Shown: piece by piece, positions 3 to 5,972 of the stretch
How the letters are laid out: every line of letters starts with the position of its first letter
Position numbering within the stretch: position 1 is the stretch's first letter
Origin: Candidatus Helarchaeota ASGARD archaeon Hel_GB_B
GTDB taxonomy: Archaea; Asgardarchaeota; Lokiarchaeia; Helarchaeales; HEL-GB-B
DNA length: 5,972 bases
Assembly (NCBI GenBank): GCA_005191425.1
Contig: SUPR01000161.1
Coordinates: 1 to 5,972, forward strand
Reading direction: 5' to 3'
The notes under the pieces: model-generated
What the model was told of the DNA's origin: nothing
Databases searched by the model: none
Seen by the model: only the letters and a program-made list of their open reading frames with translations
Made by a program: the position numbers and the translations under genes

Positions 3-908
3 ATAATATGTTTTTTTCAATCTAAATCAAAATCAGCCAGTGAAATCAAAGGGAAATCATATAAAGTGGATGGAAAAAAGGTTCAGCAAATAATATTTTA
101 CGACTTTCCGGCTTCTCTTAAAATTGATCGTGATAAATGGAAGGGAAATGAAATAGTACCAATGATAAAAACGTTAGAAGAAAAAAATTGCATGAAATGT
201 GGAGGTAAAGGAATTATTGTTTGTAAGACATGTAAAGGAACTAAATTGGTGACGTGCAAAAATTGTGGAGGACAGGGGACGGTTAAATGTTCCTATTGCG
301 GAGGAAAAGGTAAAATTGAAGTAAAAATTAAGGTATTAAAAGGTCCGCAACAAGAAAAAAGTTATAAGATAATCAAAATAAATTGTCCAAAATGTTTTGG
401 GGGATCTGGGAAAATTACATGTCAACGATGTGGTGGTACAGGAAAAGTCCCATGCAGCGATTGTAAGAGCCAAGGAAGTTGGCGGTGCGATGAATGTGGT
501 GGTTATGGAGTCTTTTATTATTACGAAGCATTACCAGTTCCTTTTAAAGATATAACAGATTTAATTCCGCACTTAATTTTCAAGAAAGAATACGAGAAAT
601 ATCTTGGTGAAAAAATAAGTAAATTAGATCTGGAAAGCGTCGAAGGAATTAAGATCACAGATATCAAAAAATTGACCAGAAAGGACTTAGAACCTCAATT
701 AGGATATTGGGATAAAAGCGTTGAGAAATTAATTTCGCAAACCAAGAACGTTTTTAAAAATTCTGAAAAAAATAACCTTGAAGACCCAAAATATCCGATA
801 TATTTGTTTCCATTATTGGAACTAGATTGTAAAACTCCAAGAGGTAAAAAATTTGAGATTTTTAGCATAGGGACTGAACAAGGATACATTATCATTGACC
901 ACTTTTAA
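3..908 (+). CDS. DnaJ-type zinc-finger repeat protein (8 CxxC repeats), SSUH2-like; 5'-partial
   Basis: The frame is open from nt 3 (IICFFQSKSKSASEIKGKSYK then VDGKK), so the GTG at 66 in the ORF track is probably internal and the gene starts upstream of the window. Eight repeats lie at 189-509: CMKCGGKG, CKTCKGTK, CKNCGGQG, CSYCGGKG, CPKCFGGSG, CQRCGGTG, CSDCKSQG, CDECGGYG. No J-domain HPD motif is present in the visible part. Stop is TAA at 906-908. Confidence 0.85.
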   Translation: MICFFQSKSKSASEIKGKSYKVDGKKVQQIIFYDFPASLKIDRDKWKGNEIVPMIKTLEEKNCMKCGGKGIIVCKTCKGTKLVTCKNCGGQGTVKCSYCGGKGKIEVKIKVLKGPQQEKSYKIIKINCPKCFGGSGKITCQRCGGTGKVPCSDCKSQGSWRCDECGGYGVFYYYEALPVPFKDITDLIPHLIFKKEYEKYLGEKISKLDLESVEGIKITDIKKLTRKDLEPQLGYWDKSVEKLISQTKNVFKNSEKNNLEDPKYPIYLFPLLELDCKTPRGKKFEIFSIGTEQGYIIIDHF

Positions 909-1039: not shown

Positions 1040-2683
1040 ATGAGTCTTTCAGAGCGGCCAATGAAATTATTAGAGTCAGAATTTAAGAGGATGAATAAAG
1101 AAGATGCATTACATACAAATATAGTCGCTGCATCTTTGATGGCTGAATTGATCAGGACTTCATTTGGCCCATTTGGACTAGATAAGATGATAATAGACCC
1201 ATTAGGAGATATAATAATAACAAATGATGGCTCAACAATTGTTAAAAATTTTGATGTAAAGCACCCTGTTGCTAGGATTTTAGACAATCTTGTTAGAAGT
1301 CAAGACTATGAAGCGGGTGATGGAACAAAAACAGCAGTAATTCTTACCGGGGAATTATTAAAACAAGCATTTCACCTTTTAGAAAATAAGATCCACCCTA
1401 ATGATATAATTAGTGGTTATGAAATAGCTTTAAAATGGGCAAATGAATTATTAGACCAAAATGCAATAAAGGTGGACATTAATGACAAACAAATCCTAAG
1501 AAATTTAGTTTTAACTGCATTAAATTCTAAGTTTCAAGTAGATAATGAAGAGTATCTTGCAGATTTAGTTGTTGACGCGGTTATGACCGTGCTAGAAAAA
1601 GACCATAAAGGAGATCATTTCGTAAATCTAAAAAATATATTTGTACTTGCTATTAAAGGAGGTAATATTAGAGATAGTCGTTTAGTTCGGGGTATGGTAA
1701 TTGACAAGGAAATATTATCTGGATTAATGCCTAAAAGAATAGAAAATGCTAAAATAGCAATGATCGAGCCTAGTCTTGAACATAAAAAGGTTCACGAATT
1801 CAAACCAAAAATTTCTATTATTAGACCTGACCAAATGAAAATCTTTAGAAATGAAGATCTAAATATTTTAAAAAAGTTTATTAATAAAATGAAGGAAACG
1901 GGAGTCAATGTCGCCTTCTTCAGGCGGGATATTTCTGAAAAAGCGCAATCATTTTTAAATCAAGCTGGAATCATAGCAGCTAGATTTGTATATAGAGATC
2001 AATTTTATGCAACTCAAAAAGCAATTGGGGCTAATTTAATTACAAAATTGGATGATTATTCAGAAAAAGACCTTGGATATGCAAAATTAGTAGAAGAGAG
2101 AAAAGTTGGCAAGAAAAAAGTAATATTTATTGAAGATTGTAAAAACCCTAAGGCAGTTTGTATATTATTGAGGGCAGGAATTAAAAACGTAGGCTATGAA
2201 CTAGAAAGAAGAATAATGGATGCATTGTCCGTGGTTAAGAATGCAGTTGAAGAAAAAAAGATCCTAGCTGGTGGCGGAGCTATAGAAATAGAACTATCGA
2301 GAAAAATAAAATTTAAATCCAATACAATGCATGGTAAAAAACAACTAGCAATAAATGCTTTTGCAGATTCCTTGGAAATAATTCCTAAAACACTTATTGA
2401 AACAGCCGGACTAGACATTATAGATATGCTGGCTAATCTAAGAGCAGCTCATAACCTTCAAAATGATGACTCTAGATTTATAGGACTTAATACTAATACT
2501 TTTTCATTAGATAATATGATAAAAGCGGGAATAATTGACTCATACCGTGCAAAGTATCATGCTATAAATGCAGCATCAGAAGTCGCCAAGTTAATTTTAA
2601 GAATTGATGATATAATAGACCAAGCAGAAGAATCGGCTTATGCGCCACCACCAAAACCTCGCGAACCCATAGAAGATGATTAG
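1040..2683 (+). CDS. ths: Group II chaperonin (thermosome / CCT-TCP-1 family) subunit, divergent paralog
   Basis: 547 aa with family motifs TSFGPFGLDKMI, ITNDGSTIVK, HPVA, AGDGTKTAVILTGELL, TALNSK, DSRLVRGMVIDKE, ERRIMDALSVV (catalytic Asp, D394), GGGAIEIEL, IIPKTL and LILRIDDII. The helical-protrusion/lid segment typical of group II is present (EHKKVHEFKPKISIIRPDQMKIFRNED). Confidence 0.97.
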   Translation: MSLSERPMKLLESEFKRMNKEDALHTNIVAASLMAELIRTSFGPFGLDKMIIDPLGDIIITNDGSTIVKNFDVKHPVARILDNLVRSQDYEAGDGTKTAVILTGELLKQAFHLLENKIHPNDIISGYEIALKWANELLDQNAIKVDINDKQILRNLVLTALNSKFQVDNEEYLADLVVDAVMTVLEKDHKGDHFVNLKNIFVLAIKGGNIRDSRLVRGMVIDKEILSGLMPKRIENAKIAMIEPSLEHKKVHEFKPKISIIRPDQMKIFRNEDLNILKKFINKMKETGVNVAFFRRDISEKAQSFLNQAGIIAARFVYRDQFYATQKAIGANLITKLDDYSEKDLGYAKLVEERKVGKKKVIFIEDCKNPKAVCILLRAGIKNVGYELERRIMDALSVVKNAVEEKKILAGGGAIEIELSRKIKFKSNTMHGKKQLAINAFADSLEIIPKTLIETAGLDIIDMLANLRAAHNLQNDDSRFIGLNTNTFSLDNMIKAGIIDSYRAKYHAINAASEVAKLILRIDDIIDQAEESAYAPPPKPREPIEDD

Positions 2684-2699
2684 AACCAAATTAAGAATG

Positions 2700-2757
2700 T
2701 TAAATTTTGAATTTAATATAAGAAAAATGAAGAAAAATTAAAGCCCTAAAAATTAAC
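2700..2757 (-). terminator. T-rich terminator candidate for mobB in the convergent ths/mobB spacer
   Basis: The minus strand after the mobB stop reads TTAGTTAATTTTTAGGGCTTTAATTTTTCTTCATTTTTCTTAT, with three T5 tracts. It includes the duplicated 9-mer AAGAAAAAT on the + strand (2720-2728, 2730-2738). Confidence 0.4.
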
Positions 2758-2761
2758 TAAC

Positions 2762-3514
2762 TTAAAATTTAATCTCTAATTGGATGTCTGATATTGATTT
2801 AGCTGGGAGTTTAAGAGTTTCAATACACCCAACAAGAATATTTTTTAACAAGTTTGCTGCAAACCTATTTAAAGCAATATTTTTTTCATTGACATATAAA
2901 AAAACATCATCAACATCTCTTGCAACACATTTTTCTAGTTTGACATCTCCTTTAAGAAAATGATTATAAAATTCTGCACATGATTTATAACCACATTTTT
3001 GACAATTCAATAGAGGGATATGGGGATATGCTAATTTTTCTACTATTCCAGGAATTTTCTCAAATTCGATATAGAGCTCATGATCTTTTAAGTCTATTTT
3101 ATGACTATAAACACCTACTGTATTGTTATTAATAAATATGTCCAAATCATCTATCTCATTGATTAATGCAATTTGTGGTATAAAATTCATGTCTTTAATT
3201 CCTTCTAAAATTACAAAATCAACTTCTTTTTCTACAATCTTAAAAATTTTAGACCTTACATTCTCCGCACGATAAATTATTCCACTTGATTCTGGAGCAA
3301 TATACGAAATTAGAGTAGCTCCTGCTTCGCCATAAATTGCTGTATCTTTCCCTTTAATATCAATTCCAAATCCTGGATGGTGCATTGATTTTATAACGCA
3401 AACTTTGTATCCTTTTTTTGTCAAATATTTTATGATATTTTTTATAAGGTAAGTTTTACCAGATCCAGAATATCCAACTATTGAGAAATATTTTGTATCC
3501 ATTTTAAGCCACAT
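2762..3514 (-). CDS. mobB: Molybdopterin-guanine dinucleotide biosynthesis protein B with C-terminal Fe-S domain
   Basis: Walker A GYSGSGKT (3475-3452), VIKSMHH...IDIKGKDT...AGA and DFVILEGIK are MobB motifs. These are followed by C-x2-C-x4-C-x16-C (3004-2927) and a C-terminal LYVNEKNIALNRF...TLK segment typical of archaeal MobB. The start may instead be ATG 3502 (MDTKY). Confidence 0.9.
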   Translation of the reverse strand: MWLKMDTKYFSIVGYSGSGKTYLIKNIIKYLTKKGYKVCVIKSMHHPGFGIDIKGKDTAIYGEAGATLISYIAPESSGIIYRAENVRSKIFKIVEKEVDFVILEGIKDMNFIPQIALINEIDDLDIFINNNTVGVYSHKIDLKDHELYIEFEKIPGIVEKLAYPHIPLLNCQKCGYKSCAEFYNHFLKGDVKLEKCVARDVDDVFLYVNEKNIALNRFAANLLKNILVGCIETLKLPAKSISDIQLEIKF

Positions 3515-3621
3515 CCTATTTATAACTATTTTAAAAAAAGACGCTAATTGTAATTATCATGGTATATATAATATTATTTCTATTGTGAGAACATTTTCTA
3601 AAAATTATAAATTCTGTTTTT

Positions 3622-3637
3622 ACACTCAAACACTCAA
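3622..3637 (+). repeat. Tandem 8-mer ACACTCAA x2 in the divergent mobB/longin spacer
   Basis: ACACTCAA at 3622-3629 and 3630-3637, read directly. Function unknown. Confidence 0.3.
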
Positions 3638-3752
3638 GGAGAATTATCTATTTTTTTAGGCAGACAATAAAATTTTCCATAAAATAATTAAATATTAGTT
3701 TGAATTATAATTAATTAATTGGATAATATGTACCTAAAAAGGCAAATTAATA

Positions 3753-4610
3753 ATGATCAGAGAAATATGGTTAGTTGAGAAATTAAGGGGTATTTGTTTA
3801 CTTCACAGGTCATATAGTTCTTTACAAACAAATCCAGACCTTTTGAGTTCATTTTTAAGTGGACTTTATGCATTTAGCGAGGTTGAACTATCAAAATATG
3901 GTTTAAAAGAAGAAACCGAAATTAAAGGGATTGAATCAATAGACATGTCCGGATTTAGATGGGTTTATGTTGATATGAAGGGAATTTTATATATTGTAGC
4001 AGCAGACCGTGAAGATAATGTTGATATTCTGAGAAAACAGGTCAAAGTCATAAGACAGAATTTTCTACATCATTTTGGGTATAAAGACGAAAAAAGCTTT
4101 TCTGAAAATTGGAATGGAAATATATCGCAATTTGAAGGAGAATTTGAAGATATATTAGACGAATTAGTCCAGAACTGGGAACAAGTAGATAATGTGAGCT
4201 TAATTATTGCCCAAAAAATGGACCTTGTAGAGATTTATCAGCAATTTTATTTAGCATTAGGGAGAATTTTAAAGTTCATTCCTAGTGAACAAACACTTGC
4301 AAAATTAAAATATAAGATGTTTAATGTAAAAAACGAGAAAATCTCAAAAAAATTAAAAAATGTAGAATATCACTCAAAGACAGGCTGGGATATAACTGCA
4401 ATTGACTTGATAAATATAAATATTCAAGAATTGCAAAATAACTTGAACATCTTACTAGAGGAATTTGTTTTAACCTTGAAACAATTAGCTGGGACTAAGG
4501 TTGTTCATAGATTAAGCAGAAAATTCGTTTTCCCTATAATTTTAAAGACTTATTCCAGATTAAAAGATTTAAAAATCGACGAAAATATCTTGAAAATTTT
4601 CTTAACCTAA
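3753..4610 (+). CDS. Longin-like domain protein (Asgard type) with helical C-terminal extension
   Basis: The N-terminal ~140 aa follow the longin/sedlin-like pattern: MIREIWLV..GICLLHRSY (beta hairpin), PDLLSSFLSGLYAFSE (helix 1), IESIDM..FRWVY..ILYIVAADRED (beta strands), ILRKQVKVIRQNFLHHF (helix 2) and W.GNISQFE.FEDILDELV (helix 3). The remainder looks helical and is not recognised. Confidence 0.7.
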   Translation: MIREIWLVEKLRGICLLHRSYSSLQTNPDLLSSFLSGLYAFSEVELSKYGLKEETEIKGIESIDMSGFRWVYVDMKGILYIVAADREDNVDILRKQVKVIRQNFLHHFGYKDEKSFSENWNGNISQFEGEFEDILDELVQNWEQVDNVSLIIAQKMDLVEIYQQFYLALGRILKFIPSEQTLAKLKYKMFNVKNEKISKKLKNVEYHSKTGWDITAIDLININIQELQNNLNILLEEFVLTLKQLAGTKVVHRLSRKFVFPIILKTYSRLKDLKIDENILKIFLT

Positions 4611-4840
4611 TGAGTTAAATAAAAAAAGAAATTGTTATTTACCATTATGACATGAATTGGTAATAATATATTATTCTCCTTAAAAATTATAAGTAATTGA
4701 AAAAAAGGTAATAGGAAGGGAAATTAAATCCCTTCAATTTAATTGAGGTTGAAATATGGCTATTGTTTAAATTAATAATTTTTATTATAATCGTTAAAAT
4801 CATTTCTAATATTAACCTTCGGATATTTATATTCATAAGT

Positions 4841-4857
4841 GAAAAAAATTTTATTAA
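4841..4857 (+). promoter_or_regulatory. BRE/TATA promoter candidate for the glycosyltransferase-like gene
   Basis: GAAAAAAA (4841-4848) is followed by TTTATTAA (4850-4857), centred about 26 nt upstream of TTG 4879. Confidence 0.5.
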
Positions 4858-4878
4858 TCTATCAAAAATTTTCTTTAT

Positions 4879-5972
4879 TTGAGAAAATTGAATGTCTGTT
4901 ATTATATTAGCTCACATGGGTTTGGACATGCAACTAGATCAATTGCAATAATCAGAGAATTGATTAGAAAAAATATTAATATTATTATACGGGCAAATCT
5001 GCCTGAATGGTTAATAACTCAATCATTTAGAAATTATTCAATTAAATATTTCAAAGGATTTGAGACATTAAAAGTATTCCATAATGAAGATTTATTAATT
5101 CTTGAAAAAGATAAGTCAATTAATTATCTAACTAAATATTATAGAAATTATGAGAAAATTATTAAAAAAGAAGTTAAATTTTGTAAAAATAATGGTATTG
5201 ACTTAATATTATCGGATATTGAACCATCTGCATTTGAAATTGCGGATAAATGCGGAATTCCATCAATTGGGATAAGCAATTTTACTTGGATCGATATTTT
5301 TCCAGAGTTTATACCAAGTGATTCTAAGATATTAAAGCGATTTGAAAATTCTTATAGAAAAGCATCATTTGTGTTTAGGCTACCATTCCATTTCGAGATG
5401 GATTATTTCTCAAAAATTATAGATGTCCCCTTAGTATTTAGAAAATTAACAAGATCACCCGAACAAGTTAAGATACAATTAGATATACCACCTCATAATA
5501 AATTAGTATTTATCCAATTTGGAGGACATTACTTCAGTACAATTCAAAAATGGAAACAAAAATTATCAAAATTTTATAAAGAAAATCCAAGTTTTGTTTT
5601 TATTACTAATAGGTTTTCGGATTTTCAACCTGTAAAGTCCAATACCTTCATTAAGCAAATTCCATTTAATGATGTGGAAACCCAAGATTATATCCCTGAA
5701 AATATAATTATTGGGAAAACAGGTTATTCATTGGTATCAGAAGTGATTGGTTATAATTCAATATTTTTTTATACAATACGAGAAAAGTGGAAAGAAGATG
5801 ATCATTTACAAGAGGGAATAAAAAAATATGGCATCGGAAAATTCTTTTTAAGAGAAGATCTAATCAATGGAAACTGGATTGATTATATAGAAGAATTCAG
5901 TAAATCAACTAACCTAAAATCTAAATCTAAAATTAAAAAATTTGGACAAGATTTTATTGCAAAGTATATTAT
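4879..5972 (+). CDS. GT-B-fold glycosyltransferase-like protein (homolog of the L-arabinokinase N-terminal domain); 3'-partial, not in the ORF track
   Basis: Translated by hand: 364 codons with no stop up to the window edge, and an in-frame TAA upstream at 4855-4857. It begins (M)RKLNVCYYISSHGFGHATRSIAIIRELI and contains DLILSDIEP, GIPSIGISNFTW, RLPF, IDVPLVFRK, VFIQFGG, IGKTGYSLVSE, IREKWKED and REDLINGNW. The start is TTG 4879 or TTG 4888. Confidence 0.88.
   Translation, partial: MRKLNVCYYISSHGFGHATRSIAIIRELIRKNINIIIRANLPEWLITQSFRNYSIKYFKGFETLKVFHNEDLLILEKDKSINYLTKYYRNYEKIIKKEVKFCKNNGIDLILSDIEPSAFEIADKCGIPSIGISNFTWIDIFPEFIPSDSKILKRFENSYRKASFVFRLPFHFEMDYFSKIIDVPLVFRKLTRSPEQVKIQLDIPPHNKLVFIQFGGHYFSTIQKWKQKLSKFYKENPSFVFITNRFSDFQPVKSNTFIKQIPFNDVETQDYIPENIIIGKTGYSLVSEVIGYNSIFFYTIREKWKEDDHLQEGIKKYGIGKFFLREDLINGNWIDYIEEFSKSTNLKSKSKIKKFGQDFIAKYI

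Follow-up and report, generated by a model that had tools for sequence, protein, structure and literature searches.

The window, a stretch of 5972 nucleotides that makes up the first 5972 bases of contig C71 in a 3.5-Mb, 94% complete assembly, begins inside an open reading frame (3..908, + strand) whose product carries a cysteine repeat of the type found in the chaperone DnaJ. An earlier note on this DNA had proposed that the product is not a DnaJ fragment at all but a full member of the SSUH2 family, and that as such it could be an overlooked eukaryotic signature protein, present in Asgard archaea. SSUH2 (C3orf32 / fls485; human UniProt Q9Y2M2) is listed in plants as 'protein SSUH2 homolog', and to our knowledge its biochemical function has not been established, the usual label being 'putative chaperone'. 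At least four CXXCXGXG motifs, along with truncated copies, are present in the human protein of ~39 kDa (PMC2838759), and a link between SSUH2 and dentin dysplasia type I has been described (PMC7818184). The question raised by this locus is thus whether the archaeal gene shares its ancestry with SSUH2, with DnaJ or with neither. The answer that we prefer, and hold with roughly even confidence, is that it encodes a soluble Asgard zinc-ladder protein belonging to a distant branch of a superfamily of SSUH2 and bacterial proteins, rather than specifically the archaeal ancestor of SSUH2.

The truncated gene and its Asgard relatives

The very first bases of the window already lie in the open frame, which means that the contig end cuts the gene at its 5' side; the assembly holds no sequence upstream of it. 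The complete form is seen in P0001, a protein of 354 aa encoded on four other contigs, which is 99% identical to the window protein (3 differences) and extends it by 53 N-terminal residues. By this comparison the 5'-truncated gene at 3..908 (+ strand; 301 codons and a stop) keeps 85% of the full length, counted from the 3' end, and the complete product, of about 40 kDa, is a member of an Asgard zinc-ladder family without J domain; the window genome has a single copy. The window protein contains 18 Cys in its 301 residues and no HPD motif. It is Lys-rich, with a pI of 9.25, and has no hydrophobic segment (maximum KD19 0.8); to judge by these sequence properties, the zinc-ladder protein is soluble and basic.

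Homology searches returned ~140 related clusters, and because these keep the frame, the gene is real; the pattern of CxxC repeats is, besides, far above chance expectation. Every named cluster stems from an Asgard MAG, the lineages represented being Hel-, Loki/Prometh-, Hermod-, Heimdall-, Hod-, Odin-, Thor-, Frey-, Jord- and Njordarchaeia; the names of the relatives fit an assignment of the window's genome to Helarchaeota. The window protein aligns end to end with at least 28 relatives at 35-74% identity. Within the phylum the spread is patchy: the C-terminal domain is present in 92 of the 301 genomes sampled, being frequent in the window's own class, where 55 of 69 are positive in one family, and not detected in some other families, with 0 of 76 in one of them.

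The relatives (P0001-P0051, P0055-P0201) occur in two forms, one of ~354 aa with eight zinc knuckles and the other of ~319 aa with four, and have in common an N-terminal segment with the pattern 'PN.D..F..W ... WKG..VP', then the four- or eight-knuckle array with a hairpin at its tip, and a C-terminal segment with the pattern 'LPVPF ... LGY ... IYLFP ... GKKF.I.S.G'. The window protein shows the same features. It had been expected that an automatic pipeline would label such a protein 'DnaJ-like' or hypothetical, and names of this uninformative kind are indeed given to the relatives: 'hypothetical', 'zinc finger-like domain-containing' and even 'RecJ-like exonuclease'. No Pfam model matched the flanking domains, NCBIfam returned no match, and our literature search met no mention of CXXCXGXG proteins in Asgard archaea. 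The zinc-ladder family is thus a distinct one, so far seen only in Asgard archaea, among which it is widespread, unannotated and at times mislabelled.

Predicted architecture of the zinc ladder

The eight CxxC motifs begin at residues 63, 74, 85 and 96, and at 128, 140, 151 and 162 (DNA 189-497), so that there are two four-motif blocks, with a period of 11 residues and a 28-residue spacer between the blocks; six of the eight fit CxxCxGxG. With a sub-threshold Pfam match they define a zinc-knuckle array at 189..509 (+ strand), for which four Zn(Cys)4 sites are predicted. What precedes the array, 3..188 (+), is the remaining part of an N-terminal segment assigned from the alignments and from the strands and helices of the model to an alpha/beta base domain. 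This segment closes, just before the first knuckle, with a W-K-G...V-P motif that is invariant in the family, its VP lying at 156-161; this V-P is among the resemblances to SSUH2 that the earlier note had listed. What follows the array, 510..905 (+), is the C-terminal segment of the base domain: in alignment and model, an LPVPF strand directly after the last knuckle, then helices and a terminal sheet. The array itself is interrupted, after motif 4 and before motif 5, by a conserved beta-hairpin (312..383, +), recognised from the model and the alignment columns; it corresponds to strands 157-166 and 171-180 of the P0001 model and to the conserved columns 'V..GE.Q.K.KK'.

The AlphaFold model of P0001 has a pLDDT of 82 and a pTM of 0.60, with most of the flanks at 85-95. 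It places a short strand at each knuckle, helices and strands in the N-terminal part, and the strand, helices and terminal sheet named above in the C-terminal part. The weak PDB matches of the modelled base are cystatin-like, with a helix packed against a curved antiparallel sheet. The two flanking segments, ~115 aa on the N-terminal side and ~130 aa on the C-terminal side, are predicted to fold together into one alpha+beta base, into which a DnaJ-type cysteine-rich hairpin appears to have been inserted.

How the knuckles pair can be approached from the two family forms. In the alignment the short form has two symmetrically placed gaps of ~21 residues each, which remove exactly motifs 2-3 and motifs 6-7; cysteines are invariant in motifs 1, 4, 5 and 8 only. 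In the cysteine-rich (CR) domain of DnaJ, motif 1 pairs with motif 4 and motif 2 with motif 3, and this nested Zn(Cys)4 hairpin served as our template. From the symmetric loss of motifs and the invariance of the remaining cysteines, together with this analogy, the most likely arrangement would be a nested pairing of 1-8, 2-7, 3-6 and 4-5 binding four zinc ions, since rungs can go missing in pairs from a nested zinc hairpin. The paired knuckles would then make up a rigid ladder bearing the conserved beta-hairpin at its tip, and the shorter relatives a two-zinc ladder.

Relation to SSUH2 and to bacterial proteins

In general build the Asgard protein is like SSUH2. Both are of about 350-430 aa, lack a J domain, and carry an internal CXXCXGXG array (in the Asgard protein eight CxxC, six of them with xGxG) between flanks that are not those of DnaJ. 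To this extent the proposed SSUH2-family identity is supported; for its other part, a resemblance reaching beyond the cysteines, the comparisons made here gave no significant sequence match. The layout, too, differs from that of SSUH2, being a regular 4+4 or 2+2 with a central hairpin. Animal SSUH2 is said to end in a Cys-rich, CaaX-like tail, although how far this feature defines the family is uncertain; the Asgard proteins have no such tail, just as the earlier note had remarked, the window protein ending in ...IIIDHF and its relatives in ...YSNF, with no terminal Cys.

The resemblance beyond the cysteines was assessed with a cysteine-free C-terminal profile in an exhaustive HMMER search of 1.84 billion representative proteins at E <= 0.001, a database size that requires ~37 bits, so that very distant relatives would escape. 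The profile found 56 proteins, all of the same Asgard architecture, full-length or fragmentary, and at this threshold nothing outside the Asgard family. No protein named SSUH2 was returned by the homology searches made with the window protein, a 43-sequence Asgard profile and P0052, and no solved SSUH2 structure by the PDB searches. When P0001, the C-terminal part of P0001 and P0052 were used for feature searches of the ESM Atlas, the yield was limited to bacterial, archaeal or viral clusters and to scores at noise level. The entries PF27659 and DUF7895 were considered as SSUH2 domains and set aside; where they match, they cover single knuckles only.

Human SSUH2 was brought into the comparison as the sequence quoted in the earlier note. 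A paper on the human protein gives the peptides EKKLLHFIQLV and KRKAKQSRR, which bears out one of the quoted fragments (PMC2838759). The quoted C-terminal 35-mer scored 1.5 bits against the Asgard C-terminal HMM, a value reached by 127 of 5000 shuffles (p about 0.025). Neither this comparison nor the exhaustive search, with its exclusively Asgard yield, thus gave a clear SSUH2 match once the cysteines were left out. The columns of the proposed FFQSK..VDG resemblance vary even inside the Asgard family alignment. What the groups do have in common outside the array is less specific: a hydrophobic strand comes straight after the last knuckle in Asgard, Bacteroidales and SSUH2 proteins alike, and the terminal motifs of the SSUH2 and Asgard proteins may be related.

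A weak match, P0052, led to the 'cysteine-rich protein with zinc finger' family of Bacteroidales (P0052, P0217-P0239 and, from Bacteroides thetaiotaomicron, P0353), whose members are 430-500 aa long and have far more CxxC motifs than the eight of the Asgard protein. Their C-terminus takes the form YKIPVT.I...CN.K.Y...IVG.N....YD.LP. and is a much better match than the Asgard one to the quoted human C-terminus: against the Bacteroidales C-terminal HMM the 35-mer, again an unverified quotation and not a database sequence, on which the result depends, scored 23.7 bits as compared with 1.5, and none of 5000 shuffles reached this score, the best giving 9.1. On the evidence at hand the Bacteroidales family thus looks nearer to SSUH2 than the Asgard family does. 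In a fold search of the Atlas, the Bacteroidales model (pLDDT 84) paired over 278 residues, at a TM of 0.45/0.45, with a plant cluster that bears the name 'Protein SSUH2 homolog isoform X2'; further matches, which span both flanks, are to clusters of Actinomycetota, Chloroflexota, Pseudomonadota and Myxococcota.

Between the Asgard and Bacteroidales families the likeness is one of architecture and, faintly, of sequence. Domain order is the same, and so is the order of secondary-structure elements, the two models being co-linear: in each, the array is preceded by helices, a hairpin, a helix and strands, and followed by a hairpin, a strand, helices, a hairpin and strands. Of the best 50 PDB chains for the Bacteroidales base, nine are also in the list for the Asgard base, including the cystatins 6i1m and 5zc1, YpeB and YpmB. 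Among the Atlas matches listed for the Asgard model is a cluster of Bacteroidales type, at a TM of only 0.29; this listing gives no more than three rows that lack a Pfam family, so that an SSUH2 cluster may be concealed in it. In sequence, hhalign aligned the last 40 columns of the two C-terminal domains with P = 0.005 and a probability of 7%, the score of 22.7 being reached by none of 200 column permutations (mean 12.0, maximum 21.1); with a broader Asgard alignment P rose to 0.07. In the reciprocal HMM searches, most members gave weak matches located in the corresponding terminal segment. The similarity, weak but reproducible, concerns the terminal beta-hairpin motif (P-I-Y-L-F-P ... G-K-K-F-x-I-x-S-I-G ...; 795..905, +), the sole stretch beyond the cysteines in which the likeness to the SSUH2-like proteins of Bacteroidales could be measured. 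Between the N-terminal domains of the two families there was no similarity (hhalign P 0.47), and a C-terminal domain of Bacteroidales type was not found in the window genome.

A common origin is made plausible by the shared topology of the insertion, the co-linear predicted structures and the weak, reproducible terminal motif. We accordingly judge it somewhat better than an even bet that the Asgard family descends, distantly, from the same source as the bacterial SSUH2-like families and, through them, as SSUH2. The strongest competitor is convergence, in which a CR hairpin of DnaJ type was put independently into an unrelated alpha+beta domain, leaving nothing in common but the cysteine repeats. 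This would account for the purely Asgard yield of the cysteine-free profile, for the dissimilar N-terminal domains, for the 1.5 bits of the quoted SSUH2 C-terminus and for the low hhalign probability, with a P of 0.07 in the broader alignment. It fits less well with an array that sits at the same topological point in both families, with the same elements in the same order on either side; with cystatin-type chains that recur in the PDB searches of both models; and with a profile similarity that, whichever family is the query, is located every time in the corresponding terminal hairpin and scores above all 200 permutations. On balance we consider convergence unlikely, while keeping it in serious view.

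Descent of eukaryotic SSUH2 from the Asgard side fares worse. On this view SSUH2 would have its immediate prokaryotic forebear, or its sister, in the Asgard family, and a eukaryotic signature protein would have been overlooked. The similar overall build, the corresponding size (about 354 aa, with the human protein put at about 39 kDa; PMC2838759), the lack of a J domain and the occurrence in many Asgard lineages would suit such a descent, and the literature search found no paper that links SSUH2 to archaea. Set against it are the clear preference of the quoted human C-terminus for the Bacteroidales profile, the SSUH2-like structural neighbours of the Bacteroidales family in several bacterial phyla and in plants, the patchiness of the Asgard family, not found in any sampled genome of one archaeal family, and the location of the FFQSK..VDG resemblance in non-conserved columns. 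This descent strikes us as improbable. The related proposal of one ancient superfamily, built on a variable zinc ladder in a cystatin-like base, in which eukaryotic SSUH2 stems from the Asgard branch, is similarly a long shot. The signature claim of the earlier note is accordingly not upheld: SSUH2-like architectures occur in Bacteroidota, with structural neighbours in four more bacterial phyla, and where similar and apparently closer proteins exist in bacteria no Asgard-eukaryote signature can be claimed. Such an outcome had been given in the earlier note as one that would count against the claim.

For eukaryogenesis the result is therefore mostly a caution, in that an SSUH2-like build does not by itself mark an Asgard-eukaryote connection. 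Should the distant superfamily that we prefer prove correct, the Asgard and bacterial proteins would be tractable prokaryotic models for SSUH2; should descent from the Asgard branch prove correct after all, the gene would be an overlooked eukaryotic signature protein and a prokaryotic model of a human disease-linked protein. In either case, natural ladders of two, four and many zincs would be useful for working out the role of the module.

Possible role, and the DnaJ resemblance

The zinc centres of the DnaJ CR domain contribute to client binding, and BSD2, a small plant protein that consists of a CR domain only (PDB 6ekb/6ekc), holds Rubisco large subunits (PDB 6ekc). By analogy with these two, the most likely role of the Asgard protein would be that of a protein-binding rod: a J-independent, zinc-stiffened structure that might act as a holdase, assembly factor or adaptor, with the conserved hairpin at its tip, or else the base, as the site presented to clients or partners. 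The architecture departs from BSD2 in that the Asgard array sits in a base domain of ~245 residues.

Zinc knuckles could instead bind nucleic acid. The protein is, after all, basic and Lys-rich (pI 9.25), and in three loci of Loki/Hod type the gene stands beside a divergently paired small ORF and a DEAD/Helicase_C/DUF5814 helicase. This helicase neighbourhood is missing in Hel-, Frey-, Njord- and other loci, no RNA-binding family was matched in Pfam, and the characterised CXXCXGXG members, the DnaJ CR domain (PDB 1exk) and BSD2, bind proteins; by comparison with these, nucleic-acid binding would seem a poor prospect next to the protein-binding rod.

The resemblance to DnaJ is itself confined to the array. 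The CR domain of type I Hsp40 proteins (PF00684, PDB 1exk) has the same CXXCXGXG motif and period, and correspondingly the nearest Pfam matches of the window protein are DnaJ_CXXCXGXG, sub-threshold at 25.9 bits against a cut-off of 32.7, and BSD2_CRD (PF25436), at 17.6 bits against a cut-off of 27. Foldseek searches of the PDB found only DnaJ CR and BSD2, both weakly (E > 0.01), and profile searches made with the N-terminal or the C-terminal domain gave no PDB match below E 0.1; a Vps28 match of the full-length profile at E 0.013 was regarded as chance. Unlike DnaJ, the Asgard protein bears an additional hairpin at the tip of its eight (or four) knuckles, and it lacks the rest of the chaperone: no J domain (PF00226) and no DnaJ C-terminal domain were matched in the window protein or P0001 (Pfam, E <= 0.1), and P0001 and its relatives have no G/F region. 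The statement that the eight CxxC repeats lie in flanks foreign to DnaJ is thus confirmed by counting and by Pfam, and it extends to the whole family, whose members share the flanking alignment columns.

That the ORF is nonetheless the remnant of DnaJ or of another J-domain co-chaperone, its J domain lying beyond the contig end, is suggested by the 5' cut and by the DnaJ central domain being the best Pfam match, and is practically untenable in view of full-length orthologues that begin 53 residues upstream with a conserved N-terminus unlike a J domain and in which neither an HPD nor a match to PF00226 or to the DnaJ CTD is present; the J-domain genes of the window's genome, besides, are on other contigs (C102, C65 and C118). 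The rejection of a DnaJ fragment, one of the points on which the earlier note was right, thus rests on the full-length P0001, whose 53 extra N-terminal residues hold neither an HPD nor a PF00226 match, and is complemented by a canonical DnaK-DnaJ pair elsewhere in the genome, in an operon on C102.

In the window the zinc-ladder gene is followed, in the same direction, by a gene for the thermosome, a group II chaperonin (1040..2683, +). A partnership of the two was considered and set aside, as their adjacency is limited to Helarchaeales and the neighbourhood is not kept in other Asgard lineages: the loci of Frey-, Njord- and other lineages have neither the thermosome nor the helicase neighbour, and across the Asgard lineages no gene neighbourhood is conserved in support of a chaperone role. 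The intergenic stretch at 923-985, an AT-rich sequence of low complexity, has matches on other contigs.

SSUH2-like proteins of gut Bacteroidales

Proteins of 430-500 aa from gut Bacteroidales (P0052, P0217-P0239 and P0353) carry CxxC knuckles that far outnumber those of the J-less zinc-ladder proteins of Asgard archaea, the family to which the 5'-truncated ORF at 3-908 (+) belongs. The C-terminus of these bacterial proteins matches, at 23.7 bits, the putative human SSUH2 C-terminus given in the earlier note, and the predicted model of one of them matches a plant 'SSUH2 homolog' cluster. The Bacteroidales family may be a bacterial relative of SSUH2, and as such merits separate study.

Surroundings of the family gene in other Asgard genomes

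In Helarchaeales, the gene upstream of and divergent from the family gene encodes an Rce1-like CPBP membrane protease of the CAAX-protease family (PF02517; 4869-5609 at locus L007, 4869-5672 at both L008 and L009, 5136-5870 at L011). The adjacency is curious, since the earlier note ascribes a CaaX-like tail to animal SSUH2; such a tail is missing from the Asgard protein, however, and coincidence is the probable explanation. In Loki/Hod-type genomes (n=3) the family gene is divergent from a conserved ORF of 52-53 aa and a DEAD/Helicase_C/DUF5814 helicase of ~890-980 aa, found respectively at 4728-4886 and 1692-4634 (L012), 4725-4886 and 1884-4562 (L013), and 4690-4851 and 1903-4572 (L014). One 1.4-Mb Asgard contig (L016) carries tandem family paralogues of 354 and 355 aa, at 5001-6065 and 6135-7202. 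Two other members, P0035 and P0039, are labelled 'RecJ-like exonuclease' by JGI, a label that finds no support anywhere in their sequence.

Other genes of the window

The thermosome subunit gene at 1040-2683 (+) yields a product that passes both the alpha and beta thermosome cut-offs of NCBIfam; judged by sequence, it is a group II chaperonin, which we call somewhat divergent because its score against the archaeal thermosome model TIGR02339 (563.5 bits) is under the cut-off of 671.1. On the opposite strand, 2762-3514 (-) encodes a fusion of a MobB-like P-loop domain (PF03205) with a putative Fe-S cluster domain (PF04060), similar to PRK14494 MobB/FeS proteins but scoring far short of the cut-offs for that group. 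The 285-aa ORF at 3753-4610 (+) weakly matches PF19036, the first longin domain of FUZ/MON1/HPS1, at a sub-threshold 23.0 vs 26.1 bits (E 9.7e-5); its product is possibly an Asgard longin-domain protein of the trafficking type. The ORF is conserved in related contigs, where its neighbours are the same.
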